Part shown: positions 2,497 through 16,543 of the stretch, one piece after another
Numbering within the stretch: the first letter of the stretch is position 1
How the letters are laid out: every line of letters starts with the position of its first letter
Assembly: GCA_963667735.1 (NCBI GenBank)
Contig: OY763919.1
Coordinates: 1,209,539 to 1,241,538 of the forward strand
Direction: 5' to 3'
Length of the DNA: 32,000 nucleotides
DNA from: an uncultured Methanoregula sp.
Lineage (GTDB): Archaea; Halobacteriota; Methanomicrobia; Methanomicrobiales; Methanospirillaceae
Translations under genes and position numbers: made by a program
The notes under the pieces: model-generated
Database searches by the model: none
Seen by the model: the letters and a program-made list of their open reading frames with translations, nothing else
What the model was told of the DNA's origin: nothing

Positions 2497-2614
2497 GAAA
2501 TTTCAGTGTTTCTTTTTTATCGGGATGCGTATATTTAATAAAAAAGGTTATAGCCGCCGGGAACCTGCGATGGATAATCCACCCTCCTCCCGATGCCGGC
2601 TCTTTTTGCCTTCC

Positions 2615-2929
2615 TTATGCTTCTTCGTACACCCGTACCGGTACCGGCAGGATACCCGGCCTCCGGTCGGTCATGAAGTACATGTAGGGCATCACGTGGA
2701 CCAGGTATTCCAGGTAGCCTTTGACAAAGTTGGATAGTCCTTCGATGCGCCTCCCGAGGATCAGGATGCAGACCCACTGGATGATGAGGCAGATTGCCGA
2801 GATGATCCCGTACACCCAGAGGACAATGCCGATGATGATCCAGTAAACGATACGGATGAGCAGTTCGAGCCTGCTCGCGTCATGCTCGTACAGGAAGAGC
2901 TGACCAAGCGCGGGGGTTGCTTGTGTCAT
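2615..2929 (-). CDS. DUF4389-family small membrane protein
   Basis: There are two hydrophobic helices (RIVYWIIIGIVLWVYGIISAICLIIQWVCILIL) followed by the ...YMYFMTDRRP motif typical of DUF4389. The start is ATG. Confidence 0.6.
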   Translation of the reverse strand: MTQATPALGQLFLYEHDASRLELLIRIVYWIIIGIVLWVYGIISAICLIIQWVCILILGRRIEGLSNFVKGYLEYLVHVMPYMYFMTDRRPGILPVPVRVYEEA

Positions 2930-3082
2930 GATATACCAAATCAGGCATGGGGGCCGTTTCGTAATAAAAGCAGCGTATTTCTCGCCCGGATGCCCTCCGG
3001 TGCACCATAGGGATTTTTGGACGTGTGTGCACTAATTTTTAATAATACCAGAACAGATGCTATAGAGCATCAGACATTAAGC

Positions 3083-3156
3083 GGGCTCGTGGTCTAGTTG
3101 GCTATGACGTCGCCTTGACATGGCGGAGGTCCTGAGTTCGAATCTCAGCGGGCCCA
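3083..3156 (+). tRNA. tRNA-Val (anticodon GAC), no encoded CCA
   Basis: The cloverleaf was folded by hand. Acceptor stem is GGGCUCG/CGGGCCC (one G-U pair). D-arm is GUCU..UGAC. Anticodon stem is UCGCC/GGCGG with loop UUGACAU. T-arm is CUGAG-UUCGAAU-CUCAG. The discriminator is A. Confidence 0.9.
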
Positions 3157-3311
3157 TCTTTCTTCTTTTCCGAAATATTCCGATAATAATCCGGTTGATC
3201 ACGTATCCTGGCAGTTGCAAAACATGGCTGTGGATATCTGCCGCAATGGTTTGGGAACAAAAACAGTACATTGCAGGAATTAATCTTCCGGAGGCGATCC
3301 CCGGTCCAGGC

Positions 3312-3629
3312 TCATTCCGGTTCTACCTGGTGACTCAGGTTTTCATACACGCTGTAGGAGTACACGTGGTTCTGGACGTTTTCTTTGATTGTGATGTTTG
3401 GGGTGGATCTTTTTGGCTTCCAGCAGGACTCGCACAACCCGCTCTTTTTTGTCCGTAAGAAATCGGTGACCGGATACCGTTCCCCGCAGCGGAAACAGCG
3501 GATAGTGGGTAAAACCGGTTCATACAGCGCGGAATCCTCCGGGCTGAGGATCGTACTATCGTTTCTGGTACCTGTACCGGTCCATCCGTCACTGTTATTC
3601 CCGTTATTGATTATTGGATGCGTATTCAT
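3312..3629 (-). CDS. Hypothetical small protein with a CxxC...CxxC zinc-ribbon motif (orphan)
   Basis: This is a 105-aa ORF with CFRCGERYPVTDFLRTKKSGLCESC. It lies in a somewhat AT-richer stretch downstream of the tRNA. I do not recognise a family, so coding status is uncertain. Confidence 0.35.
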   Translation of the reverse strand: MNTHPIINNGNNSDGWTGTGTRNDSTILSPEDSALYEPVLPTIRCFRCGERYPVTDFLRTKKSGLCESCWKPKRSTPNITIKENVQNHVYSYSVYENLSHQVEPE

Positions 3630-4835: not shown

Positions 4836-5192
4836 GACCCGGGTCCTCCCGATAATCCCGAGGTTCCCCACCGGTTTGTTTCACGGGGCGGGGGAACCTT
4901 CGGATGTACTTCCATCCCATGGCTGCGTTCCCCGCCCGCCAGTAGCGATCTTTTGCATCGCACGCCGGTCGTGGAACAACCTGTTGCTGATGGAGGAATT
5001 GGCGCTGGATATATTTTGTTCAATCGGTTTATGCTTTTTCCGGCTTTCGTGAGTGCCGCAATTTTGCCTGAATAGCAATTTCACACACAATAATAAGGTA
5101 TTTATTGAATTCTCTCTCAAAATATCCGTATTTTTCCCATTTATGGCTATATATATCTCTGATGCCCCAAAAAAGGCGAAAAAGAAGAAATC

Positions 5193-5202
5193 ATTATAAA
5201 TA
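5193..5202 (+). promoter_or_regulatory. Candidate TATA box for the NRAMP-like operon
   Basis: The sequence attataaata lies in the AT-rich divergent intergenic region, about 125 nt upstream of ATG 5327. This implies a leader of about 100 nt. A second TATA-like tract, ggctatatatatc, sits around 5143-5158. Confidence 0.3.
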
Positions 5203-5326
5203 CCTGGGGTATATTGATATGCAGGACGTCATTATCCGTGACAGGGCACCGGCATGCCCGTCATCTGCGGTGAATGGGGGCTGAATAACCGGCTATGTAA
5301 CAATATACTATCTGGGGCGTGACTGC

Positions 5327-6595
5327 ATGGATCTCGGATCAACCTTTTTTTATAAATACCAGCGATTTATCAAGACCCTGAAAATTTACCTGCTCATCGC
5401 CGGGCCGGGTCTCATCGTCATGCTCGCGGACAACGATGCCGGGGGCATCACCACCTACACCGTAACCGGTGCGAAATTCGGGTACGGGCTCATCTGGTTC
5501 TTGCTCCTCCTCCTGCCCGTTGCGTACGTTGTACAGGAGATGACCGTGCGCCTCGGGGCAGTCACAAAACGGGGCCATGCAGAGGCGATCTTCGATGCGT
5601 TCGGCTCGTTCTGGGGCTGGTTCTCGTTCCTCGACCTGGCTCTCGTGAACTGGCTGACGCTGGTGACGGAATTTATCGGGATGACCGCAGCGCTCGCCAT
5701 CTTCGGCATCGATCCGGTGATCACGGTCGTTATCGTATCCATTGTCATGATGCTGATGGTGCTGCAGGGGAAGTACTGGACCTGGGAGAAGATCGCCATG
5801 CTCTTTGCCGCCCTCAATATCGTTTACATTCCGGCGGCATTCATGGTGCACCCCTCGGTGGGCCAGGTCCTGGCGCAGGGTCTCATCCCCCATTTCCCCG
5901 GGGGATTCAACGGGACGTTGTTCTTCTTCTTAATGGCCAATATCGGTACAACGATCGCCCCCTGGATGATCTTCTTCCAGCAGAGCGCGGTGGTTGATAA
6001 GGGGATGAAGGAGAAAGATATCCCCTGGGGTCAGATGGACACTCTCATCGGATCGGCATTCACCGTTCTCGTGGCAATATTCCTGGTCGTCGTGACCGGC
6101 ACCGTGCTCTATGGTTCGGAAGTCGAGAGTGCCGCCCAGGCAGCGAGCGTGCTCATGACCACCAATCCCTGGCTCGGGACCTTCATTGCGATCGGTCTCT
6201 TCAATGCCGGGTTCCTCGGGGCGATCTGCATCTCCCTTGCAAGCTCGTGGGCGTTTGGCGAGGTATTCGGCTGGGCCCATTCGCTGAACCTGAAGATCCG
6301 CGAGGCCCCGTGGTTTTACTTATGCTACCTCTTTGCGCTCGTGAGCGCCGGTGCGGTCGTGCTGATACCCAATGCCCCGCTAGTTCTCATCACCCTGTTC
6401 GTCCAGGTCATCGCCGTGACCCTGCTGCCTGCGGCCCTGGTCTTTCTGATCCTGCTCTTGAACAACGAGGAGATCATGGGCAAATACAAAAACAATCTCT
6501 GGCAGAACATTGCCGGCACAACCATCGTTGTCGCGATCATTGTCCTCTCCACCCTGTATGGCATCACGACCCTCTTCCCGGGGCTGATCTCATGA
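5327..6595 (+). CDS. NRAMP (SLC11) family transporter with an NRMT-like (Mg2+-type) metal-site signature
   Basis: The 422-aa protein is polytopic. TM1 reads ...MLADNDAGGITTYT where canonical Nramp has DPGN. TM6 reads IGTTIAPWMIFFQQS where canonical Nramp has GA.IMPHN. Confidence 0.85.
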   Translation: MDLGSTFFYKYQRFIKTLKIYLLIAGPGLIVMLADNDAGGITTYTVTGAKFGYGLIWFLLLLLPVAYVVQEMTVRLGAVTKRGHAEAIFDAFGSFWGWFSFLDLALVNWLTLVTEFIGMTAALAIFGIDPVITVVIVSIVMMLMVLQGKYWTWEKIAMLFAALNIVYIPAAFMVHPSVGQVLAQGLIPHFPGGFNGTLFFFLMANIGTTIAPWMIFFQQSAVVDKGMKEKDIPWGQMDTLIGSAFTVLVAIFLVVVTGTVLYGSEVESAAQAASVLMTTNPWLGTFIAIGLFNAGFLGAICISLASSWAFGEVFGWAHSLNLKIREAPWFYLCYLFALVSAGAVVLIPNAPLVLITLFVQVIAVTLLPAALVFLILLLNNEEIMGKYKNNLWQNIAGTTIVVAIIVLSTLYGITTLFPGLIS

Positions 6596-6617
6596 CGGGC
6601 CGGATGGGGGTGCAGGT

Positions 6618-6821
6618 ATGGTAACGCTCGAAACGGTCTTTGGCCTCAGGATCGGGAGCATGATCCAGGGGGGGATAGACAAGATCCACGAGATCAACAA
6701 AAAATACAAGACGCCCCGGATCAAAATGTCCCGCGGAGTCAAACTCGCGCTCCTGTTCCTGCGGCTCTACCTGATCCTGCTTGTACTGCTGCTTGGCTAT
6801 AAATTCTGGACATTGCTGTAA
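6618..6821 (+). CDS. Small membrane protein (67 aa, single C-terminal TM helix), co-operonic
   Basis: ATG 6618 is preceded by gggggtgcagg (SD-like) and lies 22 nt after the NRAMP stop. The C-terminal helix is LALLFLRLYLILLVLLLGY. The next gene starts 12 nt after its stop. Confidence 0.5.
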   Translation: MVTLETVFGLRIGSMIQGGIDKIHEINKKYKTPRIKMSRGVKLALLFLRLYLILLVLLLGYKFWTLL

Positions 6822-6833
6822 AGGGAGGGAATC

Positions 6834-8123
6834 ATGCAGACGGATGGTACGCAATCAGGGAAAAGTGCCCAAAACCCGGGCACGGAATATCTCATGAGCA
6901 CGCTTATCGGGGGAAAGGTCTTCCGGGGCTCAAAGAAGATCGGCAGGCTTTCCGATCTGATGATCATCGAGACCGGAAAACTTCCGGAAGTCAAAAACCT
7001 GGTGATCACCCGCCCGTTCGGGGACCCGGCGCTTCTCGTTCCCTGGGACCGGGTGAAGAGCTTTGAACCGGGACGCTGTGCGATCGAGCTGGAGGATCTT
7101 AAAAAATACGAGGCTGAACCCCCGGAGGACGCGATCCTTCTCTTCGACCATATCCTCAACAAGAAAGTGCTCGACATGGAAGATGCCGAAGTCGAGGTTG
7201 TGTACGATATCCATCTCGTCAACCGGAACGGCCGGCTGTATGTGACGGAAGTCGATACCTCCAAGTCGGCCCGCCTCCGCCGCCTCGGGCTGGGTTTCCT
7301 GTCCGGCGTCCTGTACCCGCACGAGGACCCCAAGGACCCCGGCGTGATCTCCTGGCTGTATATCCAGCCCCTTCCCCCCCAGATCAGCAGTTTCCGGGGG
7401 GATGTCAAGCTCAATATCTTAAAAGACAAACTGGCGGAGATCCACCCGGTGGATCTCGCCGATATCCTGGAAGAGCTCGACCATGACCAGCGCGTGATGG
7501 TCTTCTCGTCGCTCGATCAGGAGCAGGCATCGGATACCCTCGAAGAGATAGAACCCCAGGTCCAGCGCGACATCATCTCGTCCCTGACCACCGAGCAGGT
7601 AGTGCGGCTCCTCAACGACATGACCCCCGGCCAGGCTGCCGATATCTTATCGGTGCTCCCGTCATCGGAAGCCCAGGAGATCCTCGAAGCCCTGAGTAAG
7701 GACACTGCCAGGAAGATCCAGGCGATCATCGGGAAACAGGAAGAGAAAGTCATCCACTATACCACGCAGAAGATCCTGAAATTCCCCCCGGAGACGACTG
7801 CCGGTTATATCGAGAACGATTACCCCCGGCATGCTCGTGGGAAAGACGTCATCATGTACATCTATGTTACCGGCACGGATGACACCCTGCTTGGCGTCAT
7901 CGATCTCAAGGATCTCCTCCAGGCCGACGATCAGGCATTGCTCAGGGACATCATGCTCGAGAATGTGATCAGCCTGTCAACGGAGAGCACGCTCAAGGAA
8001 GCATCCCAGCTCTTTGCCCGGTATGATTTCCGCGCCCTGCCCGTTGTCGATGACAAAAATCGCCTGACCGGTGTGATCCCGTACCGCGATGTGATGAACC
8101 TCACCCACCATTTCGTGGAATAA
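6834..8123 (+). CDS. Soluble PRC-barrel + MgtE N-domain + CBS-pair protein (MgtE cytoplasmic Mg2+-sensor module without the membrane pore)
   Basis: ATG 6834 is preceded by agggaggg. The N-terminus is PRC-barrel-like (LIGGKVFRGSKKIGRLSDLMI...). The MgtE_N-like helical repeat is HPVDLADILEELDHDQRVMVFSSLDQEQASDTLEEIEP...AADILSVLPSSEAQEILEAL. The C-terminus is a CBS pair (...LLGVIDLKDLL... / ...ALPVVDDKNRLTGVIPYRDVM). No TM segments follow. Confidence 0.85.
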   Translation: MQTDGTQSGKSAQNPGTEYLMSTLIGGKVFRGSKKIGRLSDLMIIETGKLPEVKNLVITRPFGDPALLVPWDRVKSFEPGRCAIELEDLKKYEAEPPEDAILLFDHILNKKVLDMEDAEVEVVYDIHLVNRNGRLYVTEVDTSKSARLRRLGLGFLSGVLYPHEDPKDPGVISWLYIQPLPPQISSFRGDVKLNILKDKLAEIHPVDLADILEELDHDQRVMVFSSLDQEQASDTLEEIEPQVQRDIISSLTTEQVVRLLNDMTPGQAADILSVLPSSEAQEILEALSKDTARKIQAIIGKQEEKVIHYTTQKILKFPPETTAGYIENDYPRHARGKDVIMYIYVTGTDDTLLGVIDLKDLLQADDQALLRDIMLENVISLSTESTLKEASQLFARYDFRALPVVDDKNRLTGVIPYRDVMNLTHHFVE

Positions 8124-8161
8124 AAAAAATAAAATCTTCGGGGAAGATCCCCCGGATCCCC

Positions 8162-8416
8162 TTATTTTTCCTGCCACATCAGCCAGACTGCATAGAGCAT
8201 GGATAAGCACGCGGCAAGGAAGATGACGGCGTGGAGGCCCGGCAGAATGTTCAGGGCAAGGATACGGTCGATATCGAAGATGACGAACAAGGCAAACGTG
8301 ATGGCAATAAACCCGCCGTACATCTTCTTTCTCTTCCATGCAACGAGCAGGGCGAGTATGGCTACCGCCAGTTCGGTAATGATTGCGATTACCTGGATAA
8401 CGTCGGATATCTGCAT
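8162..8416 (-). CDS. Small hypothetical membrane protein (84 aa, ~3 TM)
   Basis: The ORF has an ATG start and is uniformly hydrophobic (VIAIITELAVAILALLVAW..., GGFIAITFALFVIF..., HAVIFLAACLSMLYAVWLMW). It lies immediately downstream of the ancestral msrA terminator. Confidence 0.5.
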   Translation of the reverse strand: MQISDVIQVIAIITELAVAILALLVAWKRKKMYGGFIAITFALFVIFDIDRILALNILPGLHAVIFLAACLSMLYAVWLMWQEK

Positions 8417-8475: not shown

Positions 8476-8476
8476 A

Positions 8477-8587
8477 TCAGATGTGACAGGTTCCGCCGTG
8501 TTTCTCGAAATACTGCTGGTGGTACTCCTCGGCCCGGTAGAAGACCCCGGCCGGCTGGATGATCGTTACGATCTTGCCAAACCCGAA
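8477..8587 (-). pseudogene. msrA: Displaced 3' fragment of msrA (last 36 codons + stop), orphaned by the islet insertion
   Basis: The minus-strand translation is [36 protein letters not shown]. This parallels the end of the intact gene at 10494-10607 ([37 protein letters not shown]). There is no upstream coding continuation, and similarity stops abruptly at 8587. Confidence 0.85.
8493..8587. repeat. Left 95-bp direct repeat (attL-like) flanking the islet
   Basis: The sequence is ccgccgtgtttctcgaaatactgctggtggtactcctcggcccggtagaagaCcccggcCggctggatgatCgttacgatcttgccaaacccgaa. It differs from 10513-10607 at 3 positions, all C/T transitions. Confidence 0.9.
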
Positions 8588-8610
8588 ATCATCGGACAAC
8601 TAATAAGAAA

Positions 8611-8620
8611 TTATATATAA
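8611..8620 (+). promoter_or_regulatory. Islet-borne TATA box for the SLATT-TIR operon
   Basis: The sequence ttatatataa lies ~45 nt upstream of ATG 8663, immediately inside the islet boundary. A second TATA-like tract, tctataatataa, sits at ~8636-8647. Confidence 0.4.
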
Positions 8621-8662
8621 TTTTACCTATTGTCTATCTATAATATAATCTTCTCCGGATTT

Positions 8663-9130
8663 ATGCCTCCTTCTGAGAACCCGACCGTTGAGAGACTTGA
8701 AGCGCAGTTGAGGTATTACAGCCAGAGCAGTCGGAAAAACCGGCTCTGGTACAAGTGGCTCAAAGTTGCAGAAATTATTGCGGCGGCTGCAATTCCTCTG
8801 GTTGTTGTGATATTTCCAACACCCAAATGCTCAGATCCGCCGGTTACCGCTGCATTCATCGCTGCCCTGTTGGGGATGCTGATTGTCATACTCGAAGGGT
8901 TCCAGGGTCTCAACCAGTACCAGCACAACTGGATTACCTTCCGCAGCACGGCAGAAGACCTGAAACATGAGAAATATCTCTGGCTTGCAAAGGCGGGACC
9001 GTATGCGAATACTGCCAATCCCGATACACTCCTTGCAGAGCGTATTGAATCCCTGATCTCGCGGGAACACTCTAAATGGATTTCATCCCGTGAACGGGAA
9101 CCGAAGAACAATTCGGAAAGTGAAAAATAA
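8663..9130 (+). CDS. SLATT / DUF4231-family 2-TM protein (predicted membrane effector)
   Basis: The DUF4231 hallmark order is present. The N-terminal helix is RLEAQLRYYSQSSRKNRLWYKWLKVAEII. The two TM helices are AAAAIPLVVVIF and VTAAFIAALLGMLIVILEGF. These are followed by QHNWITFRSTAEDLKHEKYLWLAKAGPY. I prefer ATG 8663, because the track start at 8630 is a TTG. Confidence 0.8.
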   Translation: MPPSENPTVERLEAQLRYYSQSSRKNRLWYKWLKVAEIIAAAAIPLVVVIFPTPKCSDPPVTAAFIAALLGMLIVILEGFQGLNQYQHNWITFRSTAEDLKHEKYLWLAKAGPYANTANPDTLLAERIESLISREHSKWISSREREPKNNSESEK

Positions 9131-9140
9131 GGAGTGGATT

Positions 9141-10385
9141 GTGAGCCCGGATGTTTTCATCAGTTATGCTTCAGAGGATAGAGAGATCGGGCTATCTATC
9201 TGTAATGGTCTTGAGGATGAGGGCATTTCCTGCTGGATCGCACCCCGAGATATTCTTCCCGGCATGGTCTATGCAGAAGCGATAATCAAAGGGATCGATT
9301 CAGCAAAAGTGCTCGTTCTGGTATTTTCCTCTCACGCCAATGCATCTCCCCATATCATCCGCGAAGTGGAACGGGCCGTGCACAATAATGCAATTATCAT
9401 TCCTGTGAAACTTGAGAAGATTGATCCTTCCCCGGCTCTTCAGTATTATATTAGTGCTCCCCAGTGGATTGATGCAACTGGAGGAATATTAGAATCTCAT
9501 ATTAATCAACTCGTGGAGACCTTGAAAAAACACTTGTCTCTGGAATGTGTACATGAGCTTAAGGTTAATTCTTTAGAAGATGTCTCACAACAAAATGGTC
9601 CACTGAATCCATCCCCCGGTATTAGTCGCTCATTTTTTCGATGGAGTGTGTTGAATTTTAAAAAAATATTGATAATAATCGTTTTGCTTCTTTTTATCGC
9701 AAGTATTTCAACATATATTGTTGTTTTTCGAGATGGCGATAGTAAAAGTGCATTTATAATTGGCGATCCATATGTGGGGTATTATAGTAAGTCCTCCCCC
9801 GTTTTCACCTCCACTATGCCTAACTGGAGTGGATATATGGAAAATTATCCTCATAATAGTTTTATCGGTAAAGGCGATTTATCTCAACAAAATTCACGCA
9901 ATTTCCTTATAATTGAGTTCCCCGTCCATTTTCTATTACCCGCAAACGATGTTAGCTTTAATTATACTTGTATCGGTGATGATGGTGATTACGCCACTCC
10001 AGTTCCACCACCACATGATCAATGGGGGTATACACATAATCCCGAATTTAGTGTTGCTGTGACGAACGTGACAAATTGGTGGGGTGACTGGGTTGATGAT
10101 TCGAGTGGAGAGCGTACAAATTACAATAAAACAAATATTTTTTTAGTATCGTATTTTGATAAAACTTCTTTTGGGTCAAACAAATCGGGTTCTGAACCGA
10201 TTTTTACAAGTGGCCTCTCTCGTGGATCTCATATTCAAACAATTGGACAAGGAGATATTATGTTAAATATGGAAATTTTCTCTCTCGGTAATGGATATCA
10301 TAAATATACTTGTACGTATATTGTCACATCGAAAGAGCCCAAATGGACTCAGCAAAAAACGATAATTTTAAGCCATTATGATTGA
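9141..10385 (+). CDS. TIR-domain protein with a single TM helix and an orphan C-terminal extracytoplasmic domain
   Basis: The N-terminal TIR (TIR_2-like) domain reads DVFISYASEDREIGLSICNGLEDEGISCWIAPRDILPG...VLVLVFSSHANASPHIIREVERA, with a putative catalytic Glu codon at 9363-9365. The TM helix is ILIIIVLLLFIASISTYIVVF (about 9666-9728). It is followed by ~215 aa with no family I recognise and five NxS/T sequons. The likely start is GTG 9141, 6 nt after aaggag and 10 nt after the SLATT stop. The ORF track begins at an upstream GTG (9090) that overlaps the SLATT gene. Confidence 0.8.
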   Translation: MSPDVFISYASEDREIGLSICNGLEDEGISCWIAPRDILPGMVYAEAIIKGIDSAKVLVLVFSSHANASPHIIREVERAVHNNAIIIPVKLEKIDPSPALQYYISAPQWIDATGGILESHINQLVETLKKHLSLECVHELKVNSLEDVSQQNGPLNPSPGISRSFFRWSVLNFKKILIIIVLLLFIASISTYIVVFRDGDSKSAFIIGDPYVGYYSKSSPVFTSTMPNWSGYMENYPHNSFIGKGDLSQQNSRNFLIIEFPVHFLLPANDVSFNYTCIGDDGDYATPVPPPHDQWGYTHNPEFSVAVTNVTNWWGDWVDDSSGERTNYNKTNIFLVSYFDKTSFGSNKSGSEPIFTSGLSRGSHIQTIGQGDIMLNMEIFSLGNGYHKYTCTYIVTSKEPKWTQQKTIILSHYD

Positions 10386-10493
10386 AAATCGGATTTAATC
10401 TGAATTTGGAAAATGATGTCTCCATTTTTAAGGCAAATGTGATTCACATAATCTACCGTCCTCTTTTTTCTGCCGCGCTGTACGTGGGGACTA

Positions 10494-10985
10494 TTATCTG
10501 GTATGGCATTGCCCGCCGTGTTTCTCGAAATACTGCTGGTGGTACTCCTCGGCCCGGTAGAAGATCCCGGCTGGCTGGATGATTGTTACGATCTTGCCAA
10601 ACCCGAACCGGCCGGAAACCTCCTGCTCCAGCTTCGATGCCCGTGCCTGTTTCGCCTGGTCAGGATCATGGTAAAAGATCACCGACCGGTAGTTTGACCC
10701 GATATCCGGTCCCTGCCGGTTGAGCTGCGTGGGGTCGTGGATCGACCAGAACACCTCAAGCAACTCTTCATACCCGACCCGCGATGGATCGTAGGTTACC
10801 TGCACAACCTCTGCATGCCCGGTCTCGCCTGTGCAGACCTGTTCGTACGTGGGATTTTTGGTAAAGCCTCCCATGTACCCCACTGCTGTGCCAGAAACTC
10901 CGTCAAGCTTCCGGAACGCTGCCTCAACGCCCCAGAAACAGCCGGCCCCGAACGTGGCTGTTCTTCCTGTGCCGTCTTCTGCCAT
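10494..10985 (-). CDS. msrA: Peptide-methionine (S)-S-oxide reductase MsrA
   Basis: The active-site motif is [12 protein letters not shown], and the product has MsrA-like length. The preferred start is ATG 10985 (MAEDG...), preceded by caggagtggatt. The last ~38 codons lie in or beyond the right direct repeat. Confidence 0.9.
10513..10607. repeat. Right 95-bp direct repeat (attR-like), part of the intact msrA
   Basis: It is 92/95 identical to 8493-8587. In the msrA frame, two of the three differences are synonymous and one is a V/I change. Confidence 0.9.
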
Positions 10986-11052
10986 AATCCACTCCTGTAT
11001 GATCATGGAACCCGGGAACAATAAGATTCTCCGATCTCAGGAACGCATCACG

Positions 11053-11059
11053 TATATAA
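11053..11059 (+). promoter_or_regulatory. Candidate TATA box for pspC-like gene (short or no leader)
   Basis: The sequence tatataa is centred ~27 nt upstream of ATG 11082, in the msrA/pspC divergent intergenic region. Confidence 0.35.
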
Positions 11060-11081
11060 TGGCAACAACCCCAGTTTATTC

Positions 11082-11297
11082 ATGAAACAACTGACCCGGC
11101 CAGAGAACGGCCGTATGATCGGGGGGGTCTGCGCGGGGATCGGTCAGCACCTGGATGTCGACCCGACCGTTATACGGATAATCTGGGTTGCCTTGACCCT
11201 CCTCTCCCTCGGTACCGGCATCATCGTCTATATCATTGCCTGGATTCTCATCCCCGAAGCTCCCCGGGATCCTCCGGCTTCCCTGTCACCCCCATAA
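11082..11297 (+). CDS. PspC-domain membrane protein
   Basis: The sequence RPENGRMIGGVCAGIGQHLDVDPTVIRIIWVAL is followed by a TM helix (GIIVYIIAWILIP). This is the classic PspC-domain pattern. Confidence 0.75.
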   Translation: MKQLTRPENGRMIGGVCAGIGQHLDVDPTVIRIIWVALTLLSLGTGIIVYIIAWILIPEAPRDPPASLSPP

Positions 11298-11353
11298 CCG
11301 TACCGGACTAACAATTCATCAGGGACAACGACAAACCTGTAGGCAGGCAATTG

Positions 11354-12460
11354 ATGAAGATCCTTTTTGTAGTCTGCGGTGAGGGACTCGGGCATGCATC
11401 CCGCTGTCTCCATCTCGGGCATTACATGCAGCAGCAGGGCCACACCATCCACTACGCCGGGTACGGCAAATCCTATGATTTCATGCAGCAGCACGGGTGC
11501 CAGATGCTGCATAAGATCCCCCGCGAGGTTTGCCTTGAGGGGGAGGGAGGCTTCTTCGACCTGAAAAAGACCCTCTGGTGTTCCAAGTCGGTGGCCCTCG
11601 ACCTGCTCAAATCCGCAGCAGCCGTGCGCCGTCTCCTCCATGACAACGAGTTCGACTGCGTTGTCTGCGATACCATGTACGGGGGACTGTTCTCAGCCTG
11701 GGCCCGCAGGATCCCGAGGGTTTTCATCACCAACCAGAACCATTTCAATGGCCATGCCGGCAAGACCAACCCGGTCTGGCACCTCCTCAACCTCTTAATC
11801 CGGCGCTACATCGGCTTTTTTTCCCCCCACATCATCGTCCCCGATTACCCGTCCCCGGATACGGTGAGCGAATACAACCTTGTCATGCCCTATCGCTCGA
11901 AACCCCGGTATTATTTTACCGGCCCGTTCTACGAGTTCGACCCCACCAAGTACGTGTACGACAAGAAGACCATCTTCACCAGTTTCGGGGGGGAACCCTA
12001 CAAGCTCCCGATGTACCTGATGCTCAAGGCGATAGCCGACCAGCACAAGGAAGAGTTCTTCGATGTCTTTTATACCGGCCCGCAGATCCCGGAATCCTCG
12101 GACAACTTCGCCTCCCACGGGTACGTCCCCAACCTCTACGAGCACCTTGCGCTGGCAAAGATTGCGATCGTCCACGGGGGCCTCACTACCCTCCACGAAG
12201 CCCTGCTCTTCGAGAAACCCGTGCTCATCATCATGGACCCGAACCACCCCGAGCAGCAGAACAATGCCAAGAAGATAGTTGACATGGGTGCAGGGATCGC
12301 CATCGACGGCAGGGATGTGACCAAAGAGGTGCTTGAGGAGAAGATCGCCGAGACGCTCCTCCTGACCCCCCGGCCGTTCCAGGCCAAGCATGCGGAGATC
12401 AACGGGCGGAAGGCGGCCTCGGATATCATCCTTGGCCTCTGCAAACGCCGGCAGCCTTAA
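11354..12460 (+). CDS. GT-B glycosyltransferase (MurG/GT28-like, MJ1255-type)
   Basis: The N-terminus is MKILFVVCGEGLGHASRCLHLG (the G-rich loop of MurG-like GTs). The C-terminal half contains ...VHGGLTTLHEALLFEKPVLII... The true start is ATG 11354, because 11351 is a TTG. Confidence 0.75.
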   Translation: MKILFVVCGEGLGHASRCLHLGHYMQQQGHTIHYAGYGKSYDFMQQHGCQMLHKIPREVCLEGEGGFFDLKKTLWCSKSVALDLLKSAAAVRRLLHDNEFDCVVCDTMYGGLFSAWARRIPRVFITNQNHFNGHAGKTNPVWHLLNLLIRRYIGFFSPHIIVPDYPSPDTVSEYNLVMPYRSKPRYYFTGPFYEFDPTKYVYDKKTIFTSFGGEPYKLPMYLMLKAIADQHKEEFFDVFYTGPQIPESSDNFASHGYVPNLYEHLALAKIAIVHGGLTTLHEALLFEKPVLIIMDPNHPEQQNNAKKIVDMGAGIAIDGRDVTKEVLEEKIAETLLLTPRPFQAKHAEINGRKAASDIILGLCKRRQP

Positions 12461-12493
12461 GTAACGGGAGAAAAAAGATCCTTTCAGGATACG

Positions 12494-12766
12494 ATGAGCA
12501 TGGAAAAGAACGGGGAAATATCCCACCTCAAGGTTACGGAAGAGCTGCATACCTGCCCCTCCTGCGGGTACGACAAGGGTTTCCATACCTCGTTCCTGAA
12601 CGTGAACTCCTCTGACAATCCGGTCAAGTCCACCCGGGAGGTCTTCCGGGTGATCCTCATCTGCCCGGAGTGCGGCGCCCGCTATGATGTCGGGTGGCGG
12701 GTCTCGTTCGTTGAGCCCGAGAGCCGGTTTACGAAAACCATTGTCCTGCCTCCCCCCAGCTCATGA
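12494..12766 (+). CDS. Small zinc-ribbon protein (hypothetical)
   Basis: The 90-aa protein has CPSCGYDKG...CPECGARYD (CxxC x ~40 CxxC). Its codon composition matches neighbouring genes. Confidence 0.5.
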   Translation: MSMEKNGEISHLKVTEELHTCPSCGYDKGFHTSFLNVNSSDNPVKSTREVFRVILICPECGARYDVGWRVSFVEPESRFTKTIVLPPPSS

Positions 12767-12827
12767 ACCGGCAGATCCCGCGTTTCTGTTCTCTCCTTTC
12801 CCTCCTGCCGGTACGGTGTGAAGGGCC

Positions 12828-13973
12828 ATGATGCAGTGTGCCGAATGCAAAGGCAAGGGCCGGTGCGGCCTTCCCCGCTGCCCGATCGTGAGCCGGTTCC
12901 ATACGCAGGCGCAGATCAAGCCCGTGAGCAGTTACCAGGGATCCGCCCCGTCTGTTTTTATCGGGAGTTACGGTTACCCGGATGTCACGGGCGGCCCCCT
13001 GATGATCAATGACTCCGACAACCCGCAGGACTGGATAAAGAAGGGGCTCGGGATCGAGGAGATCGTCGCGGTCCGGGCCCGGACCATCCGCGGGAATTCG
13101 CACCTTCCCTCGGTTGCCGAAAACCTGCAGGAGATTGCAATCTCGAGCCGCCCGCTGGATGTGGATGTGGCGTTCGAGAAGCCCGTTGCTTTCAGCCTCA
13201 GTTTTGACGGAACGGTAGCCCCGGTCGGGTTCTCCGGCCCGGTCCGGTCCCTGGACGTGGTCGGGAGCGCACGGGTGGAGCGGGCGGTTGACCGGATCAC
13301 GTCGGATACCGATCTCCCGGCAACGGACGCGGCCGTCTCCCTCATGGACGCGGACATCGATGTATACCAGATAGCAAAGCTGATGACGGCCGGGCTGCTC
13401 GGGAAGCGGCGCACGTTCGTTCCCACCCGCTGGGCGATCACCGCGGTCGACGATACCCTCTCAAAGAGCCTCAAAAAAGAGATCTCCCGGTTCCCCCCGA
13501 TAGGCGAGATCTCGGTCTTCTCGGCGGAGATCTACGGGAACCGGATCGTCTGCCTCCTGGTCCCCGGCGATTACCGGTTCGAGATGATCGAGATCTGGGG
13601 AAGACAGACGCTCTGGGCCGGCGACGAAGAAGTGATCGTGCAGGATCGCGAGGGGGCAAAGAAGAGCGGGTATTCCCCCATATCCGGTGCCTACTACTCG
13701 GCCCGGCTTGCGGTCTGCGAGTACCTGGTAAAGATCCGGAGGTCGGCCCGGATCGTTGTCATCCGGAGCGTTTCGAGCGATTACTGGGCGCCGCTCGGGA
13801 CCTGGGTGATCCGGGAAGCTACCCGGAAGGCGATGGAGAACCTGCCCGTCACCTGCGCAACGCTCGACGATGGGGTCCGGAGAGCCAGCGCTGCAACCGG
13901 GTCGGATACCTGGCTTGCGAAAAGCACCCTGATCCCCGAGATGAAAGCCCAGAGAACGCTCTTTCAGTTCTGA
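12828..13973 (+). CDS. Nre-family (NreA-like) archaeal DNA repair protein
   Basis: The Cys-rich N-terminus is [20 protein letters not shown]. The length of ~380 aa fits the family. The C-terminal PIP-like peptide is QRTLFQF*. It is positioned tail-to-tail with the ATP-dependent DNA ligase, as is commonly reported for nre genes. The assignment is from memory of the family, not a search. Confidence 0.6.
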
Positions 13974-15616
13974 TAGGCCTGGGCCGAATTAGCCTGCCGC
14001 AAATAGCGCTCGCGGATGCTCCCGAGGGTCTCGATATCGGCGAGATCCTTGTCGTCCCGGATCCGGATGAACCTCGGGAACCTGAGGGCATAACCGCCAT
14101 CATAGTTCTGGCTTGCCTGCAGTTCGGCATACCCGACTTCGAAAACAAGGGACGGCTCAAACGTGACTTCTTTTCCGGCTTTCCGGATCACGCTGTCCTT
14201 GAGGAGTTCGTAAACTTCGATCAGCTGCTCGTCGGAGAACCCGGTTGCCACCCGGCTCAACGGGATCAGTTTCCCGCTGTCCTGGCAGGCAACGAGGAAC
14301 GATCCAAAGACATGGGCCCGTTTCCCCTCGCCCCATTCGGCGCCGATGACGGCAAGATCGAGCGTGTCCACCTGCGGCTTGATCTTGATCCAGTTCTTTC
14401 CCCGCTGCCCGGGTGTGTAGGGCGACCCGGGCACCTTGATCATGATGCCTTCGTGGCCTGCAGCGAGAGCGTCGGCGTAGGTCTTCTCTATTGTTGCCTG
14501 GTCACTGCTGACTACCTGCGGGGCAACGTACTGGCGGATGGTGCTCTCCAGTTTTTTCCTCCGCTCTGAAAGCGGCAGATCGATGAGCGTCTCCCCGTCC
14601 AGGTACAGGATGTCGAAGACATTGGGGATCATCTCGATAGCTTCTGTTGCCTCAGCCACATCGTGCCTCCTGCGGAACCTGCGCAGCACCGACTGGAACG
14701 GCATGGGTCTGCCATCCTTGACAGCGATAACTTCCCCGTCGATGATAACATCGTGGTCGGTAGCGGCCATCAGCTGCTCTATCACGTCCGGCAGGGCTGC
14801 TGTCACGTCCTCGAGCCTGCGCGAGTACATCCGGGCCCAGTTGCCTTTCTTGTGGAACTGGAACCGGGACCCGTCATACTTGAACTCGGCGGCGATCTCC
14901 CCGTGCTCTTCGATCATGCCGGCGATCGTCCCCTGCTGGGCCAGCATCATCCGGAGCGGGTGGAACGGGGTGATCCGGACTGCGGTGAGTGCATCGGGGC
15001 CGGTCTTTGCAAGCCTTGCCACTTCGCCCATGTCGTTGAGCGCCTGCATGGCATGCTCCACGAGAGCGGAGTCGACATTGAATGCTTTTGCCACCGCTTC
15101 CCTCACACTGCCCTCCCCTACCCCGATCCGGAGTTCTTCGAGCAGGATCCGGGCCAGGTACCGGCCTTCGAGTGGGTGGGCGTTGGCCAGGAGCCGGCGG
15201 ACCTCGAGCAGTTTCTCCCGCTGGGATTTCTTCCCCTCCTGGCCGGCAATGCTGATGAGGGCATTGTACACATGCACGAGATCCAGCTCCTCGTGGAAGA
15301 ACGTCATCTGCGATTTGGCTGAGAGCAGCTCCTCGACTGCCTGCCCGACATCGCCGGTCTTGTTGATCCGCTCGATCACGTCCTCCTTTTTTACTCCTGC
15401 CACGTACCCGATAGCTTCGTAGAGCAGGTTCGGGCCGATGCCGAGCTTCTGCGAGGACCAGTCCGGGAAGATCCGCCCCATCACAAAGCAGACAAAGACC
15501 GGCAGTTCCTCGTCCGAGAGCCCGGGCAGAACTTCGCTGATGATGGCAATCATATCGAGCCGGCCGGCTGTTGCTTCGAGCCGTTCGCAGCACCGGGAAA
15601 AATCCATGAAGAGCAT
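13964..15616 (-). CDS. lig: ATP-dependent DNA ligase (archaeal Lig1 type)
   Basis: Adenylation motif I is [12 protein letters not shown] (KxDG). Later motifs are present, including EGIMIK and [13 protein letters not shown]. The product is 550 aa. Its 3' end overlaps the nre gene by 10 bp in convergent orientation. Confidence 0.9.
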
Positions 15617-15754
15617 GGCGTAACTTGCTTTTGATGTTGCTTGGGGTTATGGATTAAGATTGTGTTCTTTGGGCTATTCTCCCCCCGTGATTCTTCCCCT
15701 TGTGAGGAAATGCCAAAGAAAAAAGCTGGTCTTCCGGTTCCGGTAACCCGGTGA

Positions 15755-16543
15755 TCAAAACCGGAGACACTGGGGATGAGCAGCCGAGGTCCCGTCCTGG
15801 GTGGCGACCGTTACCCGGTGTTCCTCGAAAAAGAGGCCGAGGCCCTCCCGGGCACTCCCTTTTGCTTTCTCGGGGGTATTGTTCATCTCGCTCAGGTGGG
15901 CGAGGATGACTTCGGGCACGTCTTTTCCGAACTCCCGCAGGCAGAGGGCGGCGTCCGGGTTGGAGAGATGGCCGCGTTTTGATCGGATCCGGCGTTTGAG
16001 GGATTCGGGATAGGGGCCGTTTGCAAGCATCTCGGGACAATGGTTGCTCTCAAGAATGATCCCGTCGCAGGGCAGGAGCAGATCCAGCATCTGCGGGGTG
16101 ACAATACCGGTATCCGTGCAGTACCCGATCCGGCAGTCGCCCTCCCGGATGATGAACCCGCACGGTTCGGCTGCATCGTGGGAGATGGCAAACGGCTCGA
16201 TTGTGAAATCCCCGACTGTGAACTCTTCGCGGTACCGGCACACCCGACTCTCCAGGGGTTTTTCGGAAGTCCGGCGGTGATTGAGGAAATCGGCCAGCGT
16301 CCCTTCCGTTGCATAGACCGGCAGATCCAGTTTCCGGCAGAGGACGTCCAGGCCCCGGATATGGTCCCCGTGCTCGTGGGTGACAAGAATGGAGAGCAGC
16401 TGTTCCGGGTCGAGCCCGGCCCGGGCCATGCGGAGAAGCAGTTCCTTTGCACTCAGGCCAGCGTCGATGAGGATGCTCCCGGAGGATCCTTCAAGGACAA
16501 CCGAATTTCCCTTGCTCCCGCTTGCAAGAACAATGCAGCGCAT
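15755..16543 (-). CDS. MBL-fold metallo-hydrolase
   Basis: The N-terminus LASGSKGNSVVLEGSSGSILIDAG and the HxHxDH motif (THEHGDHIRG) are present. A later His and AHLS occur near the C-terminus. Confidence 0.85.
   Translation of the reverse strand: MRCIVLASGSKGNSVVLEGSSGSILIDAGLSAKELLLRMARAGLDPEQLLSILVTHEHGDHIRGLDVLCRKLDLPVYATEGTLADFLNHRRTSEKPLESRVCRYREEFTVGDFTIEPFAISHDAAEPCGFIIREGDCRIGYCTDTGIVTPQMLDLLLPCDGIILESNHCPEMLANGPYPESLKRRIRSKRGHLSNPDAALCLREFGKDVPEVILAHLSEMNNTPEKAKGSAREGLGLFFEEHRVTVATQDGTSAAHPQCLRF

Follow-up and report, generated by a model that had tools for sequence, protein, structure and literature searches.

A candidate Thoeris-like operon that pairs a SLATT protein with a membrane-anchored TIR protein in a methanogenic archaeon

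An uncultured Methanoregula sp. (GenBank assembly GCA_963667735.1, contig OY763919.1, positions 1,209,539 to 1,241,538 of the forward strand) carries, in the 32,000-nucleotide (nt) stretch analysed here and called the window, a cassette of two genes that we read as a candidate Thoeris-like defence module. The genes lie on the same strand, 10 nt apart, and encode a small membrane protein of the SLATT family (gene 1) and a protein that opens with a TIR domain (gene 2). The first-pass annotation of this DNA, generated by a model from the letters and a list of open reading frames (ORFs), had proposed one operon with a TATA box, a SLATT stop codon, an aaggag motif and a GTG start at 9141; each of these features was found at the position given (Table 1), and the shared direction and close spacing of the genes agree with a single operon. 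The start of gene 1 also agrees with its homologues, which open with M..NPT..RLE in the alignment. A methanogen had been named as the host, and the SLATT protein is 100% identical to a DUF4231 protein of an uncultured Methanoregula sp.

Table 1. Features of the SLATT–TIR cassette and identity of its segments to L001, a sister-strain contig (positions are those of the window; aa, amino acids; TM, transmembrane)
Feature	Position	Strand	Basis or detail
Putative TATA-like element, ttatatataa	8611-8620	+	Sequence match; ~45 nt 5' of ATG 8663
Gene 1, thsH-like, 155-aa SLATT_1/DUF4231 protein	8663-9130	+	ATG 8663, TAA 9128-9130
Putative Shine-Dalgarno-like AAGGAG	9129-9134	+	Overlaps gene 1 stop; 7 nt ahead of GTG 9141
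Gene 2, thsB-like, 414-aa protein (TIR_2, linker helix, one TM helix, outer domain)	9141-10385	+	Start GTG
Glu75 codon, NAD+-cleaving Glu position of TIR enzymes	9363-9365	+	Homologue alignments
Single TM helix, gene 2 residues ~170-196	9648-9728	+	Hydropathy, AlphaFold2
Predicted extracytoplasmic beta-rich orphan domain, gene 2 residues ~197-414	9729-10382	+	No Pfam match
Segment replaced between sister strains (TIR linker, TM helix, outer domain, 3' spacer)	9479-10512	+	
Left direct repeat, displaced msrA 3' end	8476-8587	-	Fragment ORF 8477-8599; translation is the msrA C-terminus
Right direct repeat, inside intact msrA (10494-11021, minus)	10496-10607	-	PMSR match 1.4e-63
msrA fragment, SLATT gene, TIR residues 1-113	8502-9478		99.4% identity to L001
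Rest of TIR gene and 3' spacer	9479-10512		Identity to L001 undetectable
Right flank	10513-16000		97.9% identity to L001

The product of gene 1 matches DUF4231 (Pfam PF14015; E = 1.1e-24, 87.2 bits against a cut-off of 24.7) and SLATT_1 in both Pfam (PF18181; 4.6e-09) and NCBIfam (NF033634; 1.5e-34, 118.8 bits against a cut-off of 41), and its hydropathy profile has two hydrophobic segments that would form transmembrane (TM) helices at residues ~33-55 and ~61-84. The first-pass assignment to DUF4231/SLATT with two TM helices therefore stands. AlphaFold2 (AF2) models the protein as four long helices with a mean predicted local distance difference test (pLDDT) score of 89.8; both termini, which hold conserved arginine and lysine residues, are predicted to be cytoplasmic, and most of the 21 family-invariant residues lie within cytoplasmic helices. 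A Foldseek search of the model against the Protein Data Bank returned generic helical bundles only (best E 0.19) and no solved counterpart. The Methanoregula protein also contains a 12-residue, cysteine-containing insertion, FPTPKCSDPPVT, at residues ~51-62 (8813-8848), in the outer loop between the TM helices. This insertion is missing from 31 of 31 aligned non-identical homologues and might touch the TIR protein's outer domain.

Gene 2 encodes a TIR_2 domain (PF13676; 3.4e-22, 79.6 bits against a cut-off of 28) over residues 5-115, and residues 1-140 are modelled by AF2 at pLDDT >93. In Foldseek the domain matches plant (NLR) TIR domains, SARM1 and AbTir with a probability of 1.00, as well as the TIR-APAZ protein of SPARTA. 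Glu75 occupies the glutamate position of the S-x-x-x-x-x-E motif and is invariant in an alignment of 40 close homologues; across 55 SLATT-linked TIR proteins and the window protein, the same column holds a glutamate in 56 of 56 sequences. A TIR domain that retains this residue is what the first-pass annotation had described, and the match, the confident fold and the invariance of Glu75 bear it out. The profile searches that it had proposed as a check place both proteins above the cut-offs of their TIR_2 and DUF4231/SLATT models.

Downstream of the TIR domain, a single TM helix is marked by a hydropathy peak of 2.95 and by an AF2 helix over residues 170-196 (pLDDT 86-95), so that both proteins of the pair, with two TM segments in one and one in the other, appear anchored in the membrane as first proposed. 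Because the arginine- and lysine-rich stretch RSFFRWSVLNFKK directly precedes this helix, the TIR domain is predicted to lie inside the cell and the last ~215 residues outside, that is, with the N terminus in and the C terminus out. The C-terminal domain contains five of the six N-X-S/T sequons of the protein in both alleles described below, and two cysteines are also conserved. A profile scan gave no Pfam match for this outer domain, and an exhaustive HMMER search of 1.84 billion representative proteins recovered the sister-strain allele (P0001) as its sole real relative, together with one weak match to an Ig/cadherin-repeat protein. Its fold was not obtained: most of residues 198-374 have pLDDT <50 in the AF2 model, with strands only, at low confidence.

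A neighbourhood link between TIR and SLATT genes had earlier been predicted computationally (PMC7159879, PMC9503650), and in December 2025 Yirmiya et al. named type VII Thoeris, in which ThsB is the TIR protein and ThsH the SLATT effector (bioRxiv 10.64898/2025.12.03.692087). TIR–SLATT pairs from an Alteromonadales scaffold, Pseudohongiella nitratireducens and Bacillus licheniformis were cloned in that study and protected against phages; the type VII TIR proteins produced canonical cyclic ADP-ribose (cADPR), on infection only, and growth of cells that carried the systems was stopped by added cADPR, and not by 2'cADPR or 3'cADPR. The first-pass statement that the pairing had not, to its knowledge, been tested experimentally is thus superseded. 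In AlphaFold3 models from the same work, ThsH forms an oligomer that spans the membrane, and the positively charged pockets between its protomers are proposed as the signal site. Together with the cytoplasmic location of most invariant residues in the window protein, such pockets weaken the earlier remark that the SLATT protein has no obvious ligand-binding domain.

The effector connects the window pair to type VII. Contig L127 encodes a close relative (98% identity) of the validated ThsB of B. licheniformis SCCB 37 and, just 5' of it with a 4-nt overlap, a 150-aa single-domain SLATT_1/DUF4231 protein (ThsH, 940-1389). Along the full length of the window SLATT protein, identity to this ThsH is 39% (E 8e-30, hhalign 99.9%), and 16 of the 21 family-invariant residues are common to the two. 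A TARA contig encodes a relative of the Alteromonadales ThsB (95% identity) and, after it, a 290-aa ThsH with SLATT_3 and SLATT_1 in tandem; here the identity to the window protein is 25% and nine of the 21 invariant residues are in common. By homology, then, the window effector is a member of the ThsH family. The first-pass annotation had held that neither partner matches ThsA or ThsB architectures, which remains correct for ThsA and overlooks the clear relationship of the SLATT protein to ThsH; its description of the pair as formally Thoeris-like agrees with the best reading of the locus. On a contig that carries an Alteromonadales-type thsB–thsH pair (L002), we also observed, right after the pair, a 251-aa protein with a CAP12/Pycsar-effector-type TIR domain (2558-3313; 8.4e-30), which may be a second TIR-based effector of that locus.

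The TIR partner is more distant. Because it belongs to the TIR_2 clade, remote from the validated type VII TIR proteins, its product may differ from canonical cADPR. The four SLATT-linked ThsB clusters are themselves mutually unrelated (10.64898/2025.12.03.692087), so TIR clade does not define type VII. We found no mention of a membrane-anchored ThsB in that paper, where 'transmembrane' is used of effectors or in figure legends.

The pairing recurs across Bacteria and Archaea. Relatives of the SLATT protein occur in at least 566 stretches of a species-level genome collection; among the matches listed, most are from Acidobacteriota, with others from Methanothrix, Methanosarcinales, Nitrospirota, Verrucomicrobiota, Planctomycetota and further groups. 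In the best 80 loci, from which all linkage counts are taken, a TIR gene adjoins the SLATT_1 homologue in 42 and lies within 3 kb in 55. Adjacent TIR genes are downstream on the same strand in 28 loci, upstream on the same strand in seven and on the opposite strand in seven, and 13 further loci have one within 3 kb. Within 3 kb of the SLATT gene, the density of TIR ORFs is 13.5 times that of the outer flanks (68 versus 7 ORFs). The figure of 28 downstream TIR_2 genes is a Pfam count, and an iterated TIR hidden Markov model (HMM) gave the same number; both overrule a low count of partners that came from an HMM of close homologues alone. The 68 TIR ORFs are spread over 55 loci, with several TIR genes beside one SLATT gene in some of them, an arrangement reminiscent of Thoeris loci with multiple ThsB genes.

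Among the 55 SLATT-linked TIR proteins, 22 have a TM helix after the TIR domain and 33 do not. Their C-terminal domains include FGE-sulfatase, TonB_C, WD40, beta-helix/NosD, chagasin-type inhibitor and GH25 domains, and it is FGE-sulfatase that occurs in the closest TIR relatives, which have an SPH[IV]..E motif. The family thus combines a constant small SLATT_1 effector with TIR proteins that have varied putative sensor modules, many of them predicted to lie outside the membrane. In nine of the 42 loci with an adjacent pair, one of the two nearest neighbouring genes encodes a Tll0287-like protein with a HAMP domain; this recurrence may reflect synteny within an Acidobacteriota lineage or a third component.

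A sister strain, represented by a 236-kb metagenomic contig (L001), has the pair at the same site, beside msrA, PspC, glycosyltransferase, Nre and ligase genes, and comparison of the two divides the cassette sharply (Table 1). The left breakpoint is abrupt: it coincides exactly with the TIR domain's end and follows the residues WIDAT. Up to this point the encoded proteins do not differ: the SLATT proteins are 100% identical, as are TIR residues 1-113. Beyond it, the linker, TM helix and outer domain can still be aligned, at ~30% identity, with the cysteine pair and the last strands conserved. The 977-nt conserved block contains six mismatches that leave both proteins unchanged, which argues for purifying selection on the SLATT and TIR genes. 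Assembly chimerism is ruled out for both alleles, because a 2006-nt contig from an independent run (L043) is 100% identical to the window over 8537-10542. Silent cassettes of the kind used in antigenic variation were searched for, and the window holds no silent copies of the variable segment. An apparent deletion in the left repeat of L001 is only a scaffold gap (a run of N) and not biology. As judged from the two alleles, the pattern is that of recombinational exchange of a sensor or surface module and would fit diversifying selection on the outer domain; such an exchange is by itself silent on what the domain recognises.

Other differences between the strains surround the exchanged segment. 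The conserved block (8502-9478) is closer between strains, at 99.4%, than the flanking core genes (97.9-98.2%), which hints at a recent exchange or sweep. To the left, window positions 4872-8154 correspond to L001 6969-7150, so that the Nramp (5327-6595) and MgtE_N/CBS (6834-8123) genes are not there in L001, and CorA is 86% identical between the strains, compared with ~98% across the right flank; a hot spot of recombination seems to lie to the left of msrA. Also left of the cassette, the window has an 84-aa hydrophobic ORF (8162-8416, minus) that matches no Pfam family. L001 has a full copy of this ORF to the right of the TIR gene (9399-9653) and a partial copy to the left (7143-7298), a duplication that may be partly an assembly effect, as the left copy abuts a run of N.

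We consider it probable, by analogy with the validated bacterial systems, that the cassette is a thsH–thsB operon of the type VII Thoeris kind with an unusual sensor, and that it acts as a Thoeris-like abortive-infection module. What is observed at this locus comprises domains, homology, linkage, predicted topology and allele structure, and the steps of the pathway are carried over from those systems. In such a pathway, a virus-related trigger would cause the TIR domains to assemble and to convert NAD+ into a cyclic ADP-ribose signal; the signal would bind the conserved cytoplasmic helices of the SLATT protein, which would oligomerise and breach the membrane, and the infected cell would halt growth before the viral cycle is complete. 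The variable sensor regions of other ThsB proteins would have their counterpart in the C-terminal part of this TIR protein. Because it is predicted to be outside the membrane, this part might sense a cell-surface cue or might merely place the TIR domain beside the membrane effector.

Several observations weigh against this interpretation. The locus, like the archaeal and membrane-anchored members of the family in general, is known from sequence alone, and the best BLAST score of the window TIR domain against six type VII ThsB TIR domains is 24 bits. The validated type VII systems were drawn from TIR clusters chosen for defence-island enrichment (score >0.4; 10.64898/2025.12.03.692087), and ORF scans of the window found no other defence gene. 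Four homologous contexts are housekeeping and one further context has only an IS110 transposase 7 kb away. At 42 loci, 136 nearest-neighbour ORFs included one type I restriction-modification set, one SspH and one ThsB, and apart from the recurrent Tll0287-like neighbour the others were ordinary genes; this is a small sample, limited to two genes on each side, with no per-locus score or formal background. Matches of neighbours to pVip and mads models in PADLOC were set aside as likely cross-matches to radical-SAM (MoaA-type) proteins and ABC ATPases, as Pfam matches within the ORF set include Radical_SAM with Mob_synth_C and ABC_tran. SLATT_1 relatives are also rare in viral contigs (seven loci). 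Finally, PADLOC-DB 2.0 (2023) gave no match for the SLATT protein and weak ThsB, PDC-S66 and SAVED-TIR matches for the TIR protein, a result that says little because this release predates type VII Thoeris.

A refinement of the type VII interpretation fixes the place of sensing: the outer domain would bind a surface cue, such as a virion, a virus-altered S-layer or a neighbouring cell, and clustering would activate the TIR domain across the membrane and, through it, a SLATT pore. Several lines of evidence point this way, including the predicted N-in/C-out topology with basic residues ahead of the TM helix, the concentration of sequons (five of six, in both alleles) in the C-terminal domain, and the replacement of the outer domain as a block between flanks of 98-99% identity while the SLATT protein and TIR domain are fully conserved; bacterial relatives in which the TM helix is followed by a ligand-binding or periplasmic domain (FGE-sulfatase, TonB_C, Big_2) are also consistent with it. 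However, known ThsB proteins sense infection intracellularly, and the outer domain, which has no known ligand, was not folded by AF2. The absence of a TM helix after the TIR domain in 33 of 55 SLATT-linked TIR proteins means that outside-in sensing would not be general to the family, and the divergence of the outer domain could be turnover of a surface protein unrelated to sensing. We regard outside-in sensing as unlikely. In its fullest form, the TIR protein would be a true transmembrane receptor with a reversed Toll-like layout, in which the swapped hypervariable outer domain sets specificity, sensing precedes genome entry and the TIR product opens the SLATT pore; this we hold to be slightly more doubtful still.

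Alternatively, the system might work with no diffusible signal, the TIR domain depleting NAD+ directly in the manner of SPARTA or TIR-STING and the SLATT protein serving as a membrane-coupled second effector or regulator. The two genes, 10 nt apart, both encode membrane proteins, the TIR domain is equally near NAD+-depleting TIRs (SARM1, SPARTA, AbTir) and signalling TIRs in Foldseek, and nothing found here conflicts with direct coupling within the membrane, which the first-pass annotation had suggested. Yet the SLATT protein is a full-length homologue of ThsH, which responds to added cADPR, and the many SLATT-linked TIR proteins that are soluble or encoded on the opposite strand are a better fit to a diffusible signal than to an obligate membrane complex. 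We judge a system with no diffusible signal improbable.

Least probable in our estimation is a role outside antiviral defence, as a surface-stress or cell–cell recognition module (kin discrimination, or programmed death in consortia) that reuses TIR–SLATT chemistry: the housekeeping context here and at most sampled homologous loci, a polymorphic outer domain that would equally be expected of a recognition locus, and the prevalence of the family in soil Acidobacteriota, Methanothrix and Methanoregula among the matches listed would all suit it, but close SLATT relatives act in phage defence and also lie beside the integrase in a staphylococcal phage lysogeny module, and the pair has no linked genes for further recognition or for export.

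Direct repeats of 112 nt, which are 90% identical and correspond to the 3' end of msrA, flank the cassette. The right copy is part of intact msrA and the left copy is a displaced fragment; in a four-way alignment, the left copies depart from msrA after 'CCCGAA' at 8587. The window as a whole has a GC content of 0.564, compared with 0.50 for the SLATT gene, 0.47 for the TIR domain and 0.36 for the C-terminal part. On these sequence features, the repeats and the GC dip, 'islet' is a fair description of the cassette. The claim that the islet is mobile is only partly sustained: against the repeats and composition stand the lack of any integrase, transposase or other mobility gene in ORF scans of the cassette and window, and the presence of the cassette at the same site in the sister strain. 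There is no tRNA target at the cassette; the sole tRNA gene of the window, tRNA-Val (GAC) at 3083-3156, is 5 kb away and was ruled out as an integration target because it is not adjacent.

Neighbouring genes in the window encode CorA, Nramp, MgtE_N/CBS, msrA, PspC, a glycosyltransferase, Nre and an ATP-dependent DNA ligase, and further neighbours include MoeA and molybdopterin oxidoreductases of the formylmethanofuran-dehydrogenase type; outside the cassette, the 32 kb are given over to core metabolism and maintenance. With neighbours that are mostly housekeeping both here and at homologous loci, the context lends no support to the first-pass view that it is typical of defence cargo. A protein with a metallo-beta-lactamase (MBL) fold is encoded 5 kb from the cassette (15755-16543, minus; L001 orthologue 14973-15761). 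Precomputed Pfam data give the L001 orthologue a match to the Anti-Pycsar Apyc1 family; a scan at E<=1e-5 gave Lactamase_B and Lactamase_B_2 only, and the protein is probably an ordinary MBL hydrolase.

What is unusual at this locus is the combination of an archaeal host, a membrane-anchored, receptor-like TIR partner and an outer domain swapped between strains. If our interpretation is correct, type VII Thoeris signalling from TIR to SLATT proteins would reach methanogenic archaea. It would also have a large unstudied branch of single-pass membrane TIR sensors whose outer domain is exchangeable: in Methanoregula an orphan domain, and in Acidobacteriota, NC10 and other bacteria FGE-sulfatase, TonB_C or Big_2. 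Recognition of infection by ThsB proteins is poorly understood, and two natural alleles with the same effector and TIR domain, distinguished by the putative sensor module alone, would constitute a ready domain-swap system. The housekeeping context further suggests that screens based on defence islands may overlook the membrane-TIR branch.

Among known systems, the closest to the window pair is type VII Thoeris of B. licheniformis SCCB 37. Both are two-gene operons in which the SLATT gene precedes the TIR gene, both effectors are single SLATT_1/DUF4231 proteins of about 150 aa with two TM helices, and both TIR proteins keep the glutamate at the catalytic position. The B. licheniformis ThsB, however, is a 134-aa soluble protein of the ThsB_TIR family (PF08937), in contrast to the 414-aa window protein with its TIR_2, TM and outer domains; the six type VII ThsB proteins compared are soluble and ~130-160 aa long, whereas the window TIR protein is a membrane protein. 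Small size and solubility describe the known type VII members and do not formally define the type. The hosts also differ, being bacterial for type VII and archaeal for the window pair. In the Alteromonadales system a TIR gene likewise adjoins an effector with a C-terminal SLATT_1 half, but thsB comes first and ThsH is the 290-aa tandem protein.

A second comparison is with temperate phages. Staphylococcus phages SN8 and SN10 and Streptococcus Javan prophages carry a DUF4231–TIR pair in the lysogeny module (PMC9503650), which is a classic defence-cargo position. Like the window protein, the DUF4231 protein of the staphylococcal phages is a single-domain protein (145 aa, 35% identical) with a TIR gene directly 3'; unlike in the window, the TIR protein is small and soluble and the pair sits beside an integrase, a repressor and ImmA. 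More widely, type II Thoeris (ThsB with Macro-TM) and the SLATT effectors of CBASS and DRT10 have been proposed to follow the same scheme, in which a nucleotide-derived or nucleic-acid signal acts on a small membrane effector, although the DRT10 effector belongs to SLATT_5 and the window protein to SLATT_1. No SIR2-SLOG ThsA, Macro domain, CD-NTase, cyclase or reverse transcriptase was found among the ORFs scanned in the window.

Animal Toll-like receptors, like the window TIR protein, cross the membrane once and join a variable outer domain to a TIR domain in the cytoplasm. The order is reversed, as the window TIR domain is N-terminal; it also keeps the enzymatic glutamate and has a pore-type effector as its partner rather than adaptors. 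The likeness is confined to layout, and nothing points to common descent of the proteins as wholes. Closer to the present host, we observed a DUF4231/SLATT_1 gene that adjoins a SAVED-domain gene and type III-A csm genes on a Halocatena marina plasmid (NZ_CP109982.1, 3971-5832), which suggests that in archaea SLATT effectors are also wired to cyclic-oligoadenylate signalling.

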